Shown here: positions 4,845-36,723 of the stretch, in pieces
Layout: every line of letters starts with the position of its first letter
Numbering within the stretch: the first letter of the stretch is position 1
DNA from: a virus
Lineage: Duplodnaviria > Heunggongvirae > Uroviricota > Caudoviricetes
DNA length: 40,169 nucleotides
IMG/VR virus record: IMGVR_UViG_2693429774_000011
Reading direction: 5' to 3' (one strand)
Notes under the pieces: model-generated
Databases searched by the model: none
The model's input: the letters and a program-made list of their open reading frames with translations, nothing else
Told to the model about the DNA's origin: nothing
Made by a program: the position numbers and the translations under genes

Positions 4845-5140
4845 CTATAGCGGAGGCCAGCCTTCCGGAGGGTTAGGCGCAGTTGGTGTCGGGGGAACAA
4901 TTAATACATCGCTTGGGCCAGGTTCTCCAGGTTCCATTGCTTCTGCCGCATCGGGAGCTGGTAATGGTGGTTCTGGTGGTGGCCCCGGAGGAGCAGGTTC
5001 ATTCAGAGATACAGCTAACGGAAAAGCGGTATCAGCAGTTGGGCCTGGAGGTGGCGGAGCTGGATTATGTCCTAATTCATCAACGGGTCAGTCGGGTGCC
5101 GGAGCAGATGGCGCAGTTTATATTTACTGGTGAGGTTCAT

Positions 5141-5311
5141 ATGTGGGCAAGAATTGAAGAAAATAAAGTAGAAGAGATAACGGAAATTAATCCTGAAGGA
5201 AGATTCCATCCATCATTAATATGGAAAGAATGCCCTGCTGACACACAGCAGGGGGATTTATATATTGATGGTGAGTTTATTGCGCAGTCTCCGGCAGTTC
5301 AGGCCAGATAA
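5141..5311 (+). CDS. short ORF downstream of the Gly-rich cassette (possible small fibre chaperone)
   Basis: 56 aa, GAGGT RBS 4 nt after the cassette stop; 3' end overlaps the convergent tfa gene. Confidence 0.3.
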   Translation: MWARIEENKVEEITEINPEGRFHPSLIWKECPADTQQGDLYIDGEFIAQSPAVQAR

Positions 5312-29400: not shown

Positions 29401-29597
29401 TCCGCACCAGTCTCGATTTAGCGCAGGTTAACATAACCACTTCATTGGTAGAAGAAAAGAACTCTTCTTGTCAGAAAGCTACTGTGATATCCCTAAACCT
29501 GCAGATGATACAGAACAAAATTTAAGCATCAATTGTAGGCGATTTTAAATTCACTTTACAGTTTAGGCTGCCAATTGGCAGCCGATTGAAGCAGAAA

Positions 29598-29867
29598 TCA
29601 ATGAGTGCTCATCGATGAATTTTTTTCAGCGCCAATCTCACTCAAAAAAGCAAAACCTTTTGACGTTATCTCATTAGCAATCAATCCACCTTCGGCAGAT
29701 TTGCTTCGTATAACATCGATAAAACCTATATCAGCAAGATCTGAAATAGCAAAATTAACCTCTTTTGCTGAGAGATGAGGTAATGATGCAGCCTGAATTC
29801 TAGAATCCTTTGGCTGCAATTCATTCACTCGACGTAGTATTTCAAGATGGATAGAGGTCAGTTTCAT
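29598..29867 (-). CDS. small cargo protein, function unknown
   Basis: 89 aa, AT-rich, first ORF after the tR'-like terminator. Confidence 0.5.
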   Translation of the reverse strand: MKLTSIHLEILRRVNELQPKDSRIQAASLPHLSAKEVNFAISDLADIGFIDVIRSKSAEGGLIANEITSKGFAFLSEIGAEKNSSMSTH

Positions 29868-29950
29868 AATGTTCTCCTGTTTTTAATGTTGTTTTACAGA
29901 AAACATTATAACACATTGATTTTGATGTAGATTGAATAGAAAAAAACCAT

Positions 29951-29976
29951 AAAAAAACCTCGCAATAGCGAGGTCG
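29951..29976 (-). terminator. intrinsic terminator downstream of Q (tR'-like)
   Basis: minus strand CCTCGC-TATT-GCGAGG followed by 7 T, about 110 bp downstream of the Q stop. Confidence 0.6.
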
Positions 29977-30081: not shown

Positions 30082-30834
30082 TTATCTCGTCACCCTTCTC
30101 AATTGTGCTTCAGCGTAAGCTTCCTCCTGCCAGCACTTTGTAACCAGTTTATCAATGACATCTGCATATCCTTTGTACCACTGATAATCCGTCAGGTCTG
30201 GTACCAGCTTCTGGACATGAAGCCGCGCCAGTGTGGTTGGTAAACGGCTAAACCGGTTTCCATTGCAACGCCCACAAATCTTATAAACAGGCGTGCCATG
30301 AAGCCGGGTTCTTTTTTCATCCAGGACAATACCTTTACCCTTACACCCTCTGCACGCTGTGCTGACTTCTCCCTTACCATGACAATGCTGACATAGTTCC
30401 TTCACCCACTCTTCCTTGATAACAGACTCCCCGCTTCTGGAGTGTTTCACCACTTCGCGCAATACATTATGAAATCCAGTACCAGCACAATGCTCACAGC
30501 GAGCCTTACTTGCCGCAGACCTAGAATAATCAGCAAAGGCAAAATTCACAAGGTAAGGAATGATCTGTAGCCGGGTTTCTTCACTCAATTTGTTCAATGT
30601 CGGGTTATCCAGTGCCATCGCGTAATTGAGCAGACCTTCAATCGCAAACTGAGGATCCTGAACACCAACTTTTGCCAGGAATAAGGCAAACCCAAGCGGT
30701 GCTTTCGACTGCACCATCCCCTGCGCAGCCATCACATCTGTAATTGTTAAACCACCCGAGCCTGTCGCCGGTGCGTCATCACTCAATTTTGGAGATTTTG
30801 GGGAGTAATATTTTGGTAAGGCTTCAAGGTTCAT
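30082..30834 (-). CDS. late-gene antitermination protein Q-like (zinc-binding)
   Basis: 250 aa from ATG with GGAGAA RBS; CxxC zinc motifs; sits between nin-like genes and a terminator / lysis cassette. Confidence 0.6.
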   Translation of the reverse strand: MNLEALPKYYSPKSPKLSDDAPATGSGGLTITDVMAAQGMVQSKAPLGFALFLAKVGVQDPQFAIEGLLNYAMALDNPTLNKLSEETRLQIIPYLVNFAFADYSRSAASKARCEHCAGTGFHNVLREVVKHSRSGESVIKEEWVKELCQHCHGKGEVSTACRGCKGKGIVLDEKRTRLHGTPVYKICGRCNGNRFSRLPTTLARLHVQKLVPDLTDYQWYKGYADVIDKLVTKCWQEEAYAEAQLRRVTR

Positions 30835-30847
30835 GCTCGTTCTCCAC

Positions 30848-31843
30848 TTACGCCAGTACGCCAATTGCCAGCGCACGATCGATAAAACGAAATATCAGCT
30901 CCAGCTGGGAGCCATACTTCTCTTCAAATGCCACGGTATCCGCATGCAGCTCGTCGTGATGCTTTCTGCACAAAGGCAACACAAAGAGGTCATGCGCTTT
31001 TGTACCCATCCCACCCTGACCGTGGCCTATCAAGTGGTGGGGATCATCAGCAGGCTTTCCACAACATGCACACGGCTGTGTCTTAACCCAGCGCGTGTAC
31101 TTTTCATTAACCCAGCGGCGACGTTTTGGGCGTAACATAAAAGACTCCGGCGACTCCGGATCCACTTTCAGCGTCAGCACCTTTTTCGCCTTATCCTGGA
31201 TGATGCTGGTGGCAGGAACCGAAGGCACAAGGTCACTTTCCCGGGTGACAGACGGCACAACAGGCTTTGGTAATCTCAGTGCCTTACGGGCTGCACTTTC
31301 CGGTAAGGCATCCGCCAGGTCATTACGAATCAGCCACCAGCACAGTTCCGGCATTGTCACAACGTGACTATCATCAAAACCGAGATCCCGACGCACAACA
31401 GACAACACCCAGCGGGCACAGTTATCCGTTGCCATTGATTCCAGCCGTTCCGTGAACTGATCGCGCAGCTGGTTATCACAGTGCCAGCACAGACGGATTG
31501 CGCCCGGAGCGTGTCGCATTGTGGTCATGTTCTCGCTATGCCAGTCGGAATGAGGCCACTGGCAGCCTTTTTCACGAAGTAACCAGCTTTCAAGACATTC
31601 CACGCCACCAGCACGACGGATCACTGCCTCATTGCGGAACACGGCCCGAACAGCAGGATCATCCGCCAGCGGTTGTGATGCCGCGGGAACGGCACCACTG
31701 GCGAAAGATGAATAACGTTCCGGCTCAGGCTCCAGCAGTACACGCCCCTGCATAAACAGGGGCATCAGCTCTGAACCTGGTCTGAACAATACGATCCCCA
31801 TACGCGGGGCTATTTCAGGGGTCAGTAGTGCTCTCACGGTCAC
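30848..31843 (-). CDS. DUF968 / YdfU-like protein with HNH-like C-terminus
   Basis: 331 aa, C-terminal CACCGKP...HHLIGHG...CRKHHDELH. Confidence 0.6.
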   Translation of the reverse strand: MTVRALLTPEIAPRMGIVLFRPGSELMPLFMQGRVLLEPEPERYSSFASGAVPAASQPLADDPAVRAVFRNEAVIRRAGGVECLESWLLREKGCQWPHSDWHSENMTTMRHAPGAIRLCWHCDNQLRDQFTERLESMATDNCARWVLSVVRRDLGFDDSHVVTMPELCWWLIRNDLADALPESAARKALRLPKPVVPSVTRESDLVPSVPATSIIQDKAKKVLTLKVDPESPESFMLRPKRRRWVNEKYTRWVKTQPCACCGKPADDPHHLIGHGQGGMGTKAHDLFVLPLCRKHHDELHADTVAFEEKYGSQLELIFRFIDRALAIGVLA

Positions 31844-31844
31844 C

Positions 31845-32687
31845 TCAATGAACGGTATCGAGCAACTTTAACAGCTCAGGGAATCGGGATTCGAAGAAAT
31901 GCGGCTGCGTCTCACGCGGATTTGCGGGACTGGTGATGTTCTTGCCGAACATGCAGCCTTTCGCCGTCAGCGACCAGAATTTTTTGATGTTGTTAATCGC
32001 GGTACGGCTGTATCGTTCGCGCTGCTCGACGATCCCCAGCTTCGCCATCTGGTGATATGCCTGATTAGCCGTAAGGCGGATACCATACTGTTTCAGCAGT
32101 GCACTCAGCGACAGTGTCGGGCGGCTTGAGCCATCAGGCGCGTCAGCAGGAGCATCAATGGCATAGCGCGGTGCCAGATTCGGTAAGCCAACAGCCTCCT
32201 GGAGTTTCTGACAGGCCCCAAGCACTGAAGAGTTAGACAGGTTTAACTCCCTGCGCATAAAGTCCAGCAGAATCACTCCAGCCTGCATCTTGTCAGCAGC
32301 CTGCCCGGATAATTTTTCCGGTACGCTGGTTACCATATCGAAAGTACGGATCACCTTCAGATGGAATGACGGGCTGATCCACATTGCATAGGCATACACC
32401 AGTTCCTTGCAGACATAAGTTCCCCGTTCATTTCCCCCATGAATCACACTCACCGGGTCAACACCCAAATTCTGGGTGTTGGTCAATTCATGAACAAGTT
32501 CAACAGTTTGTTGGCTGGAAAGAAACTTTCCTGGCTCCTTGGTTCTGGCATTTGCACCAGATGCTACTGCTGCGCGATGCAGATCGTTCAGGCTGTAACG
32601 CCCATAAGCATCACGACGAACTTCAATACCATCAATGACCATCAGATTATTCATACTTCGTTTCTCCTTTTGCTCAGGCGTCTGCAC
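31845..32687 (-). CDS. KilA-N domain protein (antirepressor-like)
   Basis: 280 aa with an N-terminal KilA-N-like region. Confidence 0.55.
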   Translation of the reverse strand: MQTPEQKEKRSMNNLMVIDGIEVRRDAYGRYSLNDLHRAAVASGANARTKEPGKFLSSQQTVELVHELTNTQNLGVDPVSVIHGGNERGTYVCKELVYAYAMWISPSFHLKVIRTFDMVTSVPEKLSGQAADKMQAGVILLDFMRRELNLSNSSVLGACQKLQEAVGLPNLAPRYAIDAPADAPDGSSRPTLSLSALLKQYGIRLTANQAYHQMAKLGIVEQRERYSRTAINNIKKFWSLTAKGCMFGKNITSPANPRETQPHFFESRFPELLKLLDTVH

Positions 32688-33063
32688 CCGCCGTTTTCTC
32701 GTACTTACTGATAGTGATCTCGACCTTCCCTTCCGGGATAACCGGTCCCCACTCCACCAGCATTCTTTTCACCTGGCTGTCGTCTTCCCACACACCCGCG
32801 TGGGTCAGAACGTCAAACAGCGCCTTGTTATAGTTGTCCAGATCGCGGATCCTGTTATCCGGAGGAAACAACACAATCTCTACTGAAGCAGGTGCCGACG
32901 TTGGTTTCGGCAGACGACGTAACTGCTCAACTATTGCTGCGCACGCCGCGCTCTGGAATTTTCGCCCCGCCGCGCTTATCAGGCTCTTACCAGCAAACGC
33001 CCCTTTGTTGGGGTGTCGCCAGTACGTGTTCACGCTGGGCGGAAAAGGCAGGATCAGCTTCAT
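32674..33063 (-). CDS. rusA: Holliday junction resolvase RusA
   Basis: 129 aa, N-terminal LPFPPSVN and central DxDN motifs typical of RusA. Confidence 0.8.
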   Translation of the reverse strand: MKLILPFPPSVNTYWRHPNKGAFAGKSLISAAGRKFQSAACAAIVEQLRRLPKPTSAPASVEIVLFPPDNRIRDLDNYNKALFDVLTHAGVWEDDSQVKRMLVEWGPVIPEGKVEITISKYEKTAGADA

Positions 33064-33419
33064 ACTTTCAGGCCCCTCTCATGTAACCAGTGGGTTGCAC
33101 GCAGCCTTGCGTTTTCCTCACCGGCAAGCAGTGAGCGGATAATCCCGACCGCCTCGCTGTCGTCGTCCTTCACCGCGGTATGAAGCGTGATGCCCCGGGC
33201 CACGCCACGCTTTATCGTGATGACGCCTTTTTTCTCCAGTGCGCGAAGATGCTCCACCGCTGCATTCACTGAACGGTATCCCAGCATGGTTGCCACCTCC
33301 TGATTGGTTGGCGGGAAGCCACGTTCTTTCTGATAAGAAATCAGCATATCCAGCACCTGCTGCTGACACTGAGTTAACGTCGTCATTAAGCCCCCACGTA
33401 ATTCCCTGACAGATACCAT
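33060..33419 (-). CDS. LexA-type DNA-binding-domain protein lacking the peptidase domain
   Basis: LTQCQQQVLDMLISYQKERGFPPTNQEVATMLGYRSVNAAVEHLRALEKKGVI matches the LexA N-terminal winged-HTH pattern; no S24 peptidase domain. Confidence 0.6.
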   Translation of the reverse strand: MVSVRELRGGLMTTLTQCQQQVLDMLISYQKERGFPPTNQEVATMLGYRSVNAAVEHLRALEKKGVITIKRGVARGITLHTAVKDDDSEAVGIIRSLLAGEENARLRATHWLHERGLKV

Positions 33420-33880
33420 TCATCACCCGATACAGCGCGCTTGCTGCTTTTCCGTAAGCACCGCTCTCGACGCGCCAGAAAGTTGTTTCGTTCTGGCTGG
33501 GAGTGACTTTCACGGAATGCCGCCATCCACACCGTTGCAGCACGACGGTATAAGCCCCTGGACTCCAGCTCTTCAGCCTGGCGGGTCAGGCACAAAATCA
33601 CCCGGGGATCGTTAGTGCCGACATAGAAATTGCGCACAGGTCTGGTTTCACGAACAGATTGTGGTTCCGGCTCCTGCGCTCTCTCAGTCAGGCGCGGGAA
33701 ATGTCTGCGTGTATCTCCTTCACAACGGTGAGCCACACGCCCACTCTGACGTAACTTGCTTGCTGACTGCAGAACGCGCTGCCGTGAGTAACCAGCAAAA
33801 GCATCTGCAATGTCTCCGGAAGTACAGCCCGGATGGGCTTCAATGAATTTCTGAACGTCATTCAAAAGACTCATGATCAC
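33386..33880 (-). CDS. PerC-family regulator-like protein
   Basis: 164 aa with LESRGLYRRAATVW, the signature I associate with PerC. Confidence 0.5.
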   Translation of the reverse strand: MIMSLLNDVQKFIEAHPGCTSGDIADAFAGYSRQRVLQSASKLRQSGRVAHRCEGDTRRHFPRLTERAQEPEPQSVRETRPVRNFYVGTNDPRVILCLTRQAEELESRGLYRRAATVWMAAFRESHSQPERNNFLARRERCLRKSSKRAVSGDEWYLSGNYVGA

Positions 33881-34818
33881 CCCCTGAATCCTGCCGGGAT
33901 CTGGCTGTAGTCCACGTTGTCGTAACTGGCTTTGAAGTACGGGTCTTCACGTTTTTCTGTGTGCGTGCTGACGGACGGCGATAAGCGCAGGGAAAGCTCA
34001 TCCCATTTTTCCCGCAACTTCGACGGGCTGAGCACGTTACGGCACCAGAACGGATCGCGGCTGACGCGGCTGTACATCTCGCAGATTTGTTTGTGAGTAC
34101 GACCATCCTGCACACACATCAGGCGAATTTCGTTTGCCCATGCTGTCCAGTTCGGTTCTTTGGGACGAACCACCTCGCCGTCACATTCGGCGGCCTGCTC
34201 GTACAGGGCAATGATTTTTTTCCAGAGCCACTGTGCGCAGGTCAAATCATCCTGCGTTCCCCACTGGCGCTTTTTAGGGCTGAATACAACCGCATCAGGA
34301 TGGCGAGTTAAAAAATCCTGTTCAGCCGTCTGCGTGTCCGGTTGCGAAGCGTCCGGACGAGAAGGTTTTTTATCTGACGGATCATGTTTTGATTTTACTG
34401 ACGGATCCCCGCCAGATTCTGACGGGTGAAAACCCGCTTTTTTGCCAGATTTCGACGCATCAAATTTTGACGGGTCAGATTTTGATGCGTCAGATTTTGA
34501 CGGGTCAGAATCTGACAGTTGAGAAAATGCCGCTGCCTGAAGCTTCGCAACGTTAAGCTGATAAACATTCGACGCATTGCGGTTACCCTGGCGACGCGCC
34601 TTACGCGTTAACCAGCCTTCTGCTTCCAGCCGTGCGATAGCCGTTCTGACGGTACTCATCCCCGCGCCAATCTGGCGGGCAATGGTTTCAATTGATGGCC
34701 AGCACACACCTTCGTCATTACTGAAATCAGCCAAGCGGGCCATAATTGCCACGCTGGATAATTTCATGCCTGACGCTGCGCAACCATCCCATACATAGCC
34801 GGTTAATTTAGTGCTCAT
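33877..34818 (-). CDS. replication initiation protein (O-like, N-terminal winged HTH) with internal iterons
   Basis: 313 aa, GAGGT RBS; tandem SKSD-type repeats in the middle coincide with the DNA iterons. Confidence 0.65.
   Translation of the reverse strand: MSTKLTGYVWDGCAASGMKLSSVAIMARLADFSNDEGVCWPSIETIARQIGAGMSTVRTAIARLEAEGWLTRKARRQGNRNASNVYQLNVAKLQAAAFSQLSDSDPSKSDASKSDPSKFDASKSGKKAGFHPSESGGDPSVKSKHDPSDKKPSRPDASQPDTQTAEQDFLTRHPDAVVFSPKKRQWGTQDDLTCAQWLWKKIIALYEQAAECDGEVVRPKEPNWTAWANEIRLMCVQDGRTHKQICEMYSRVSRDPFWCRNVLSPSKLREKWDELSLRLSPSVSTHTEKREDPYFKASYDNVDYSQIPAGFRG
34370..34518. repeat. iteron array (about 8 imperfect 15-bp units, AGATTTTGACGGGTC-like) inside the replication gene: candidate origin
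   Basis: direct tandem repeats visible at 34462-34506 and degenerate copies on both sides. Confidence 0.6.
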
Positions 34819-34827
34819 GACCGACCT

Positions 34828-35166
34828 CTATTTCCCTGAATTTACGACGAAACTGTTCGAGCGGGCTGAAGCACTCATGCTCATAGCCTTCACGGAGGTA
34901 GATAACCCGTTGTGTTTCCGGCTCCCAACGAATGACTCTGACGGGCACTCCGTAGTGATCTTTGAACCAGCGGTTAACTTGTCGCAAAGGACTGCCTCCT
35001 TCTGCCGGTTGAAATCCCCCACAGCCCACTCTGCAAAGCTGTGGGTTACAATTTCCCTGTCACCTGGTACATTCACTGCATAGCAATACTCCACCTTCGC
35101 TTTTCCACCCGGTACAGGAAGCGCAATAAGTTGCGAGCGACGGTAGTGTGTTGTTAAACTGTTCAT
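34828..35166 (-). CDS. hypothetical early protein
   Basis: 112 aa, GGAGA RBS, ATG overlaps the CII-like stop (ATGA), stop 10 nt before the O-like start. Confidence 0.45.
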
Positions 35167-35726
35167 GCGTTAGTTTCTCCACAGTCACGACACGCCACGG
35201 CGCCCGGAGCTGCACACTCGCGGGCGTCATTACTTTCTGAAATGCAAAAAATTTTGTAGACCAGTGCTGCATGCTCCTGCAGCTTCGAAATTGAGAGGTA
35301 CAACTCGTCGTTAATTGCTGTCTTCTCATGCGGTTCCACTACACCGTCTTCAATTGCTGAACGAATCTGTTTTGAATAACTGCCGATCTGTTCAATGACC
35401 TCCAGCAGGCGTTGGTTGATATCGGCGTTGTCCACATCCTCGACGTCAGGAAGAGACACAAAGACGCCATTTGCAGACTGCGCCACAGCATCAGCAATGA
35501 AGTGAGTGCCACCAGCACGCTGTAAAACCATTGCCCATCCCAGCGGGAAAATCTGATCGCCATCTGCACGAAGGCGGTTGAATAAAGCGTTTTCTGTTAC
35601 ATCGAGCCAGTCAGCCGCTTCAGCGTAACCACCCGGCAACGCCGCGATAGTTTTTCTGACAGCTTTCACGTACCACTCAGGCTGTTTTTCTATTTTCCAG
35701 TGATGCTTACCCACGATTAGCCTCAT
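35163..35726 (-). CDS. CII-like early regulatory protein (tentative)
   Basis: 187 aa immediately downstream of cro. Confidence 0.4.
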
Positions 35727-35757: not shown

Positions 35758-35958
35758 CTAATCTTTCGGATAGATATCCGGTCTTAAGTCAGATTTCGTA
35801 ATTGCACCTGACGTGCATTGCTCAAGTTTTTTAGCCAGCACAAAACTGGCTTTTTTATAGCCATTGAAAACCAGCCGTAAGTAGCCAGGTGTTGAGCCAA
35901 CTTTTCCGGCCAACTCGCCCTGCTGTTCTTTGGTTAAAGAGTCCCAATACGCTTTCAT
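35758..35958 (-). CDS. Cro-like HTH repressor
   Basis: 66 aa from MKAYWDSLTKEQQGELAGKVGSTPGYL..., GGAGGT RBS 9 nt upstream, divergent from cI; the longer ORF-track N-terminus is rejected. Confidence 0.7.
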   Translation of the reverse strand: MKAYWDSLTKEQQGELAGKVGSTPGYLRLVFNGYKKASFVLAKKLEQCTSGAITKSDLRPDIYPKD

Positions 35959-35963
35959 ACAAT

Positions 35964-36033
35964 ATGTACCTCCGGTGTACATATTACATGATTGAAATGA
36001 ACCTTCAAGATACTTGTACCTTAACGGTACAAG
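35964..36033. promoter_or_regulatory. operator / divergent promoter region between cro and cI
   Basis: palindromes ATGTACC-N5-GGTACAT (35964-35982) and CTTGTACC-TTAA-CGGTACAAG (36013-36033); minus-strand TTGAAG-16-TAATAT promoter toward cro. Confidence 0.55.
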
Positions 36034-36048: not shown

Positions 36049-36723
36049 ATGAAAACAATCCATGACATCCGGCGGTCTAACGCCAGAAAACTGAGAGATG
36101 GTGTTGGCGGGAATTCTTCCTTTGCCACTATGATTGATCGCGAGCCAACCCAGACCAGCAGGTTTATGGGAGATGGTGCTACTAAAAATATCGGTGACAG
36201 CATGGCACGACACATCGAAAAATGTTTCGACCTGCCTGTCGGATGGCTCGATCAAGAACACCAGACAACGAACATCACAAAAAAACCTGATGTTTCAATC
36301 ACTAATAAACAAATCACATTAGTCCCTGTCATATCATGGGTACAGGCCGGAGCATGGAAAGAAGTTGGATATTCTGAGGTTGATTTGAGCACAGCAGAAA
36401 CGTATCCCTGCCCTGTACCCTGTGGGGAAATGACTTATATCTTGCGGGTGATAGGTGATTCAATGATTGATGAGTACCGCCCGGGAGACATGATTTTTGT
36501 CGATCCTGAAGTACCTGCCTGCCACGGTGACGACGTTATTGCATTGATGCACGATACAGGTGAAACCACCTTCAAAAGGTTGATAGAAGATGGGACACAG
36601 CGTTATCTCAAAGCGTTAAACCCAAACTGGCCTGAGCCTTACATTAAGATCAACGGTAATTGCTCTATAATTGGTACAGTGATTTTCTCAGGAAAACCAA
36701 GAAGATACAAAATCAAAGCCTAA
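36049..36723 (+). CDS. CI-type prophage repressor (HTH + S24 LexA-like autopeptidase domain)
   Basis: 224 aa, C-terminal GDSMIDEYRPGD and KRL motifs of S24 peptidases. Confidence 0.85.
   Translation: MKTIHDIRRSNARKLRDGVGGNSSFATMIDREPTQTSRFMGDGATKNIGDSMARHIEKCFDLPVGWLDQEHQTTNITKKPDVSITNKQITLVPVISWVQAGAWKEVGYSEVDLSTAETYPCPVPCGEMTYILRVIGDSMIDEYRPGDMIFVDPEVPACHGDDVIALMHDTGETTFKRLIEDGTQRYLKALNPNWPEPYIKINGNCSIIGTVIFSGKPRRYKIKA

Follow-up and report, generated by a model that had tools for sequence, protein, structure and literature searches.

Which sites would a phage-borne LexA-type DNA-binding domain occupy once it has parted from the peptidase domain of LexA? We addressed this question for a small gene in the virus record IMGVR_UViG_2693429774_000011, whose 40,169 nucleotides (the whole stretch analysed, hereafter the window) represent an SfII/SfV-like lambdoid prophage of Escherichia coli. 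An earlier note on this DNA had described the minus-strand open reading frame (ORF) at 33060-33419 as a LexA N-terminal winged helix-turn-helix (HTH) without the S24 peptidase domain, and had proposed that its product could sit on SOS boxes of host or phage promoters without being cleavable through activated RecA (RecA*). Our analysis favours, at a probability of roughly 0.45, a RecA-insensitive, dimeric LexA-type operator-binding protein, which the prophage would produce after induction and which would fill LexA-type sites again, acting in trans. Such an 'uncleavable LexA surrogate' is the best-supported reading of the gene and is unproven.

A LexA-type DNA-binding domain joined to a two-helix tail

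The ORF of 119 aa is present in the ORF list, but its 5' end is over-extended by 33 nt. The ATG at 33386, which encodes M12 of this frame, is overlapped by the TAA stop codon of the upstream PerC-like gene in a TAATG junction and is preceded by a Shine-Dalgarno-like GGGGG run. Residue 12 is also the first matched position in Pfam, PHROG 362 and TIGR00498 alike, and RefSeq annotates the gene (WP_000210170.1, 'LexA family transcriptional regulator') with a length of 327 bp or 108 aa. In phages with a dam gene inserted at the junction (such as locus L045), the same MVSVKELRGGLM prefix stands before dam instead. Because of the TAATG overlap, the profile starts, the RefSeq length and the position of this prefix before dam, the true start is almost certainly M12 and the gene spans 33060-33386. 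The first 11 codons of the longer frame most likely lie outside the translated protein, which would have 108 aa rather than the 119 aa assumed before. The window gene shares 100% DNA identity with annotated RefSeq genes. It is under strong purifying selection (pS 0.087, pN 0.005), and the ratio pN/pS of 0.06 over 48 distinct alleles from 81 loci excludes a chance ORF. The gene and its parts, with residues counted from M12, are as follows.

33060..33386, minus strand: LexA DNA-binding-domain-only gene in its revised, almost certain extent (108 aa plus stop; RefSeq, PHROG 362, TAATG junction)
33387..33419, minus strand: the 11 extra 5' codons of the 119-aa ORF, corresponding to the 3' end of the PerC-like gene read in another frame
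33183..33386, minus strand: winged HTH, residues 1-68, with helices H1 (6-22), H2 (28-35) and H3 (40-52) and a beta-hairpin wing (56-68), from PF01726 and the AlphaFold2 (AF2) model
33231..33272, minus strand: recognition helix, residues 39-52, SVNAAVEHLRALEK, from the alignment to E. coli LexA
33156..33182, minus strand: acidic flexible linker, residues 69-77 (HTAVKDDDS), with a predicted local distance difference test score (pLDDT) below 50 at residues 71-75 and a length that varies in the family
33063..33155, minus strand: C-terminal two-helix hairpin EAVGIIRSLLAGEENARLRATHWLHERGLKV, residues 78 onward, with AF2 helices at 74-87 and 93-103 (pLDDT ~87)

The LexA-type identity of the N-terminal part was borne out by both profiles and structures. 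The LexA_DNA_bind profile (PF01726) matched residues 12-76 of the 119-aa ORF over its full length (profile positions 1-65 of 65, E 3.7e-19) with 68.7 bits against a cutoff of 23.7, instead of an unrelated HTH family, which the earlier note had named as the outcome that would speak against its idea. Among solved structures, the top match by sequence was 1lea, the DNA-binding domain of E. coli LexA (E 6.9e-16), with full-length LexA entries also near. The AF2 model, with a mean pLDDT of 80, was superimposed by Foldseek on the LexA-DNA complex 3jso (3jso_B) with a root-mean-square deviation of 1.3 Å over 68 residues at 50% identity. The alignment with E. coli LexA remains ungapped up to residue 68, and residues 1-68 are ~50% identical.

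The absence of the peptidase domain could be confirmed as well. The Pfam search found no Peptidase_S24 domain (PF00717) in the protein, which ends at residue 108, and a peptidase remainder further downstream is ruled out because the RusA gene (32674-33063) overlaps the stop codon with its own start (ATGA). LexA-style uncleavability, as proposed previously, follows because the S24 domain is missing in its entirety, the Ser119/Lys156 region with it, and no LexA-type self-cleavage is available to the protein. TIGR00498, the NCBIfam lexA equivalog of 203 positions, was matched only at profile positions 1-91 and with 70.3 bits, below its curated cutoff of 110.95 bits, and the SOS boxes expected upstream of a LexA repressor's own gene are missing in the window. 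The prophage protein is not LexA in the family sense, because it lacks the S24 domain and SOS boxes upstream of its gene and scores below the curated cutoff. It belongs to PHROG 362 (phrog_362, E 1.5e-59, 199.8 bits, ORF residues 12-119 against profile positions 1-106 of 106), a family described as 'transcriptional repressor' that also includes WP_000210170.1 and SfV orf42; this annotation is homology-based.

The earlier note overlooked the conserved C-terminal tail. The tail has no Pfam match, and its pattern EA..h.R.L.A....AR..A..(W/F)L...G is kept in family members down to 40% identity. The two-helix tail is a putative dimerisation module in place of the S24 domain. The hidden Markov model and PDB alignments extend past the hinge to LexA residues 70-91, placing 'LLAGEE' opposite the cleavage region 'VAAGEP' and A88-G89 opposite LexA A84-G85. 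The Gly at 89 is replaced by K or N in close relatives and by R, D, C or E in distant ones, and at 'LLAGEE' the AF2 model has a helix, in contrast to the strand and loop in LexA.

The recognition helix RSVNAAVEHLRAL is close to that of E. coli LexA, RSPNAAEEHLKAL. In LexA, the DNA-contacting residues of helix III are S39, N41, A42, E44 and E45 (PMC3091678). The comparison of contact residues that the earlier note had called for gave a mixed answer: four of the five (S39, N41, A42 and E45) are identical in the prophage protein, whereas E44, and also P40, are changed to V. In the wing and turn, LexA and the prophage protein agree at K53, G54, R64, G65 and I66. Within the window clade (members of at least 80% identity), the helix RSVNAAVEHLR is near-invariant, with A42S and H46Q/N as the only variants, and it stays constant across the differing phage backbones of SfV-like phages, mEp460, Stx2c and cdtI, which fits a constant target, for example one in the host. 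Several deep branches keep the helix SSPNAAAEHLKAL, even nearer to that of LexA; SSPNAAAEHLK, found in L093-L101 and L121-L125, is very near the RSPNAAEEHLK of LexA.

Distribution and relatives beside SOS boxes

With an identity of at least 90%, copies of the 360-bp stretch are present in 2264 of the 5426 complete E. coli genomes (~40%), nearly always on the chromosome. The gene also occurs in phages SfII, SfIV, SfV (orf42 region), mEp460 and cdtI, in Shiga toxin (Stx) phages of the Stx2c and Stx2a types, and in others. Homologues with the same architecture, 106-135 aa long, extend down to ~40% identity and include other genera. Many database proteins (P0132, P0133, P0149, P0152, P0153, P0156, P0159 and others) contain two tandem LexA-type DNA-binding domains per chain and could be single-chain 'pseudo-dimers' lacking the peptidase domain. 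A locus search based on the family alignment recovered near-identical E. coli prophages alone; distant members were queried singly. With protein P0138 as the query, we retrieved a distant Klebsiella-type clade of 28 viral loci together with the isolated Klebsiella phage Kp4865-4, at 41-63% identity.

Of the 28 loci of this clade, 27 have a perfect SOS box upstream of the homologue at a distance of no more than 1.6 kb; the calculated chance expectation is ~0.02 per 1.6 kb. The nearest box is located 435-687 bp upstream in 25 of those loci. The box in the dinI promoter of Kp4865-4, TACTGTTTATTTATACAGTA, scored 27.2 bits with a position weight matrix (PWM) that was assembled from ~21 E. coli SOS boxes and is approximate; it overlaps a TTGAC(C/A)-17-TATACT promoter. 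The operon order in the clade is a DinI-like or RecA-like gene, phrog_1813, the LexA-DNA-binding-domain-only gene, phrog_1212 (~66 aa) and DUF968 (cassette loci L093-L119 and L126, e.g. L105:5322-6527, and L127:2304-3506 for Kp4865-4). The first gene is DinI-like (PF06183, E 8e-22) in 18 loci, and in two others (L117:4538-5683 and L118:4538-5683) two adjacent canonical boxes are followed by a phage RecA homologue of 361 aa, phrog_1813 and the LexA-type gene. DinI modulates RecA filaments in both the induction of the SOS response and its shut-off (PMC10907235). Because of the SOS-box promoter and the DinI-like or RecA-like operon partners, the homologue in the Klebsiella-type clade is, judged from its sequence context, an SOS-induced gene within an SOS-modulating cassette. 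This context ties the family to the SOS response, and the conserved operon behind an SOS box looks like a phage-borne SOS-modulation cassette. We know of no earlier description of such a cassette.

Just upstream of the cassette in eight loci (L106 at 4881-5248, L109, L112, L113, L115, L116, L119 and L126), there is a UmuD-like ORF (phrog_3469, 109 aa, starting GFPSPAKDYAE). In at least five of these loci (L106, L109, L112, L116 and L126), the ORF stands directly behind its own perfect SOS box. The SGxSM motif with the catalytic serine is apparently missing by visual inspection, and the ORF may encode an inactive UmuD'-like protein. We also considered a 'split LexA', in which a small upstream ORF of the clade would supply the S24 fragment. 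This idea was set aside: phrog_1813 has no Pfam match, the UmuD-like ORF apparently lacks SGxSM, and both are absent from the window. Likewise, the 185 bp that follow the homologue in the P0138 clade, at first sight an 'intergenic' operator region, proved to hold the small conserved ORF phrog_1212.

SOS boxes also occur in E. coli-type loci that encode the same LexA-like protein as the window, in modules that are absent from the window. In 24 loci (L002:3045-3060, L003:1548-1563 and others), a cI-like gene contains a perfect palindromic SOS box of 20 bp, TACTGTTTTTACATACAGTA; the repressor encoded by this gene has 230 aa, with the box in ..NTVCKNSI.., and is of an immunity type unlike that of the window. 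In 24 loci (L003:11002-11017 and others; also L094:10555), a DNA methyltransferase gene downstream of Q (~350 aa, MKNTVKINSV...) has another strong box, TACTGTAAAAATAAACAGTG, over its codons 3-9, which suggests LexA control of a phage methylase. In five loci (L045:6767-6782, L020, L058, L062 and L066), rusA and the KilA-N gene are separated by a 150-bp gap, just downstream of the LexA-like gene, that contains the box TACTGTATTTATGAACAGTG. The window has no such box, and there rusA and the KilA-N gene overlap.

Operon setting in the prophage

The gene belongs to a minus-strand operon with the order cII-like gene, small DUF4222 ORF, O-like gene, PerC/YfdN-like gene, LexA-like gene, RusA, KilA-N, DUF968 and Q, in which most stop and start codons overlap. 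The main neighbours are listed here together with the immunity repressor.

36049..36723, plus strand: prophage immunity repressor, YmfK-like, with a complete S24 domain (PF00717, E 1.5e-26); RefSeq ymfK, 'LexA family protein'
35163-35726, minus strand: cII-like gene (PF06892)
33877-34818, minus strand: O-like initiator gene
33386..33880, minus strand: PerC/YfdN-like regulator, upstream of the LexA-like gene and translationally coupled to it (PF06069, E 1.8e-9; phrog_1324; RefSeq yfdN)
32674..33063, minus strand: RusA Holliday-junction resolvase, downstream and translationally coupled through ATGA (PF05866, E 2e-14; phrog_34)
31845-32687, minus strand: KilA-N gene
30848-31843, minus strand: DUF968 gene
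30082-30876, minus strand: Q antiterminator (PF03589)

Because of its place in this operon of overlapping genes, the LexA-like gene is a delayed-early gene of the rightward early operon. Expression of the operon is ultimately under the control of the S24-type repressor at 36049-36723, which is presumably cleavable through activated RecA. A promoter scan, which is a weak test, found no internal promoter able to express the gene in the lysogen. PADLOC defence-system models gave only marginal and partial matches to the gene and its neighbours (E of 3.6e-4 or higher, save for one neighbour at 2e-5), and membership of a defence system was rejected on these grounds.

Several features of the surroundings may be recorded in their own right. 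The N-terminal part of the PerC/YfdN-like neighbour weakly resembles winged HTHs of the MarR/BilQ type, and its C-terminal region is PerC/ANR-like. In many phages, a dam methylase gene is inserted exactly at the TAATG junction between the PerC-like and LexA-like genes. Within the O-like gene, a 15-bp unit repeated 4.3 times at 34446-34509, CAGATTTTGACGGGT, encodes the repetitive DPSKSDASKSDPSKFDASKS and probably represents iterons of the origin. A low-GC, moron-like insert (29597-29975, minus strand) separates Q from the lysis genes. It is composed of a terminator-like hairpin at 29975-29956, a promoter-like stretch containing TATAAT, and then an ORF of 89 aa that weakly matches DUF2513 (E 2.4e-4). 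A CTGT-N15-ACAG repeat stands between the -10 element and the ribosome-binding site of this insert.

Proposed action and rival explanations

How might such a protein act? It would be made only upon prophage induction or infection. After an SOS-triggered induction, the LexA of the host would already have been cleaved, and the prophage protein, dimerised through its two-helix tail, would bind LexA-type operators with CTGT half-sites (CTGT-N8-ACAG) and re-fill the vacant SOS boxes, from which activated RecA could not remove it. The outcome would be that the host SOS regulon and the LexA-controlled genes of co-resident elements are damped during lytic growth. A wider version of this proposal, which we put forward more tentatively, is that the family provides a widespread RecA-proof surrogate that re-closes SOS boxes and silences the host SOS response together with LexA-controlled genes of rival elements, such as the antirepressors of other prophages, colicins, and SOS-induced toxins or defences. 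It would then be an anti-SOS factor at the operator level and a factor in competition between prophages, and in Klebsiella-type phages it would form part of an SOS-induced dinI/recA/lexA-DNA-binding-domain feedback cassette.

The search for binding sites in the window bears directly on where the protein could act. There is no exact CTGT-N8-ACAG SOS box in the 40-kb window, so that the SOS-box search proposed by the earlier note came out negative for the prophage, and its suggestion that SOS-controlled promoters of the phage could be targets found no footing there. None of the CTG-N10-CAG sites in the window exceeds 12 of 20 consensus matches, and the best of them fall mostly inside listed ORFs. 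The best PWM score in the window was 9.9 bits, compared with 12.7-27.3 bits for the training boxes, and it fell below the mean maximum of shuffled sequence (11.9 bits). CTGT/ACAG inverted repeats with spacings of 0-20 showed no obvious excess across the window beyond the immunity operators at 35955-35991, and these operators were also the only generic inverted repeats that stood out in the operon and the non-coding regions. The stretch from Q to the late genes likewise yielded no candidate palindrome. Any LexA-type target must therefore lie outside the prophage, and action in trans is proposed because the prophage has no SOS box of its own.

The missing box in the window is one of several points that weigh against the surrogate reading. 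The window contains none of the dinI, phrog_1813 or umuD-like genes of the Klebsiella-type cassette. In the recognition helix, both E44 and P40 are replaced by V, and position 40 is part of the LexA408 altered-specificity triple mutant. The helix of L102-L116, SSPNAVALHLR, carries E45L and A43V despite the canonical SOS box upstream, and the Citrobacter protein P0086 (65% identical) has RSVNTIAGHLR, with NTIAGH replacing NAAVEH. Further relatives show E45 changed to L, G, I or D, A42 to T or G, and N41 to Y. These sequences suggest that the binding specificity has shifted in parts of the family, and one host SOS-box target common to all members is unlikely because the recognition-helix residues vary among the relatives. 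The AF2 run was of a monomer (predicted template modelling score 0.54), and dimerisation by the tail is a model only. A functional test or binding data for the E. coli protein were not found in the literature, where we met it in catalogue mentions only, for example as Pham 237 (pfam01726) in 15 Stx phages (PMC8136144).

Among known systems, E. coli LexA (1lea, 3jso, 1jhf and 1jhh; N-terminal domain 1-84) shares with the prophage protein the winged HTH fold, four of the five contact residues and the wing residues. LexA has an S24 peptidase and dimerisation domain with its Ser/Lys pair where the prophage protein has the two-helix tail, and the latter differs further in being phage-encoded within a delayed-early operon without SOS boxes before the gene in the window. 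The LexA variants G85D and S119A are non-cleavable (Ind-), and the prophage protein should be insensitive to activated RecA in the same way. DinI-like prophage proteins, PsiB of conjugative plasmids and gp7 of phage GIL01 would share the outcome of a damped or reshaped host SOS response, but they act on RecA filaments or on the LexA protein, whereas the prophage protein would act at operator DNA. The only characterised phage protein consisting of a LexA DNA-binding domain alone is gp6 (ORF6, 66 aa) of the Bacillus tectivirus GIL01, a truncated LexA homologue that activates the late promoter P3 (PMC6182141). Like the prophage protein, gp6 is phage-encoded, lacks the peptidase domain and is expressed early in lytic development. 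Unlike it, gp6 stops right after the wing and has no tail, and its recognition helix, VSHKTAHRYLMQLE, is quite different; BLASTP of the prophage protein against gp6 (L128) gave no significant alignment. From their sequences, the two proteins are probably analogous, independent truncations of LexA from different host lineages. The family was already annotated and catalogued, and the concept anticipated.

The precedent of gp6 leads to the main rival, which we regard as serious and, on the present evidence, rather unlikely: a phage-specific transcription factor, activator or repressor, in which a LexA DNA-binding domain was captured and its specificity redirected to a non-SOS site of the phage or module, for example for timing Q and late genes, nin-region genes or moron genes. 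The precedent itself, in which gp6 activates P3 at the non-LexA palindrome GaCACA..TGTGaC (PMC6182141), speaks for this explanation and against SOS boxes as the target. The phage-specific reading is further favoured by the variation of recognition-helix residues 41, 42 and 45 among the relatives, by P40V and E44V in the prophage protein, and by the place upstream of DUF968 and Q that is kept across clades. Against it, neither the operon nor the non-coding part of the window offers an outstanding palindrome or CTGT-type repeat other than the immunity operator at 35955-35991, the four key LexA contact residues are kept, and the helix does not vary between mosaic phages whose only shared part is the PerC-(dam)-lexA-like-rusA module.

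Other explanations fare less well. That the protein is a decaying, functionless remnant of a captured lexA gene, as might be read from the end of LexA homology shortly past the cleavage-site region, is effectively refuted by the pN/pS of 0.06, by a length of ~106-108 aa and a tail that are kept to 40% identity in other genera, and by translational coupling of the gene on both sides. It is improbable that the protein modulates other proteins instead of repressing at operators, docking on activated RecA, host LexA, UmuD or the S24 repressor of the prophage in order to tune cleavage. The TIGR00498 and PDB alignments do span LexA 70-91, with Ala-Gly 88-89 opposite A84-G85, and relatives share operons with the DinI-like and RecA-like binders of RecA filaments near UmuD-like genes that may be inactive; on the other hand, G89 is unconserved, AF2 predicts helices in place of the LexA strand and loop, and the strong conservation of the winged-HTH surface points to DNA binding. 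Slightly more improbable still is an accessory role in replication or recombination, in which the protein would bind near the origin or aid RusA, replacing the missing P/DnaC-type partner of the O-like initiator. Its position between the iteron-bearing O-like gene and RusA, with overlapping stops and starts, and the RusA gene that follows the homologue in several clades would agree with this role. The P0138 clade has no adjacent RusA, the PerC-lexA-like-rusA module travels with different replication genes, and the protein nowhere shows a resemblance to helicase loaders.

What the gene means for its hosts depends on which sites it occupies. If it is a phage-specific regulator, it is an ordinary small transcription factor of the nin region. 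If it occupies SOS boxes, an operator-side switch that ends or reshapes the SOS response is carried by many E. coli, Shigella and Stx prophages. The LexA DNA-binding domain would then have been shown to be re-usable with a minimal helical dimeriser replacing the peptidase domain. Such a switch may affect SOS mutagenesis under DNA-damaging antibiotics, and it may also influence the induction of Shiga-toxin phages, the cross-induction of co-resident prophages and the release of colicins.

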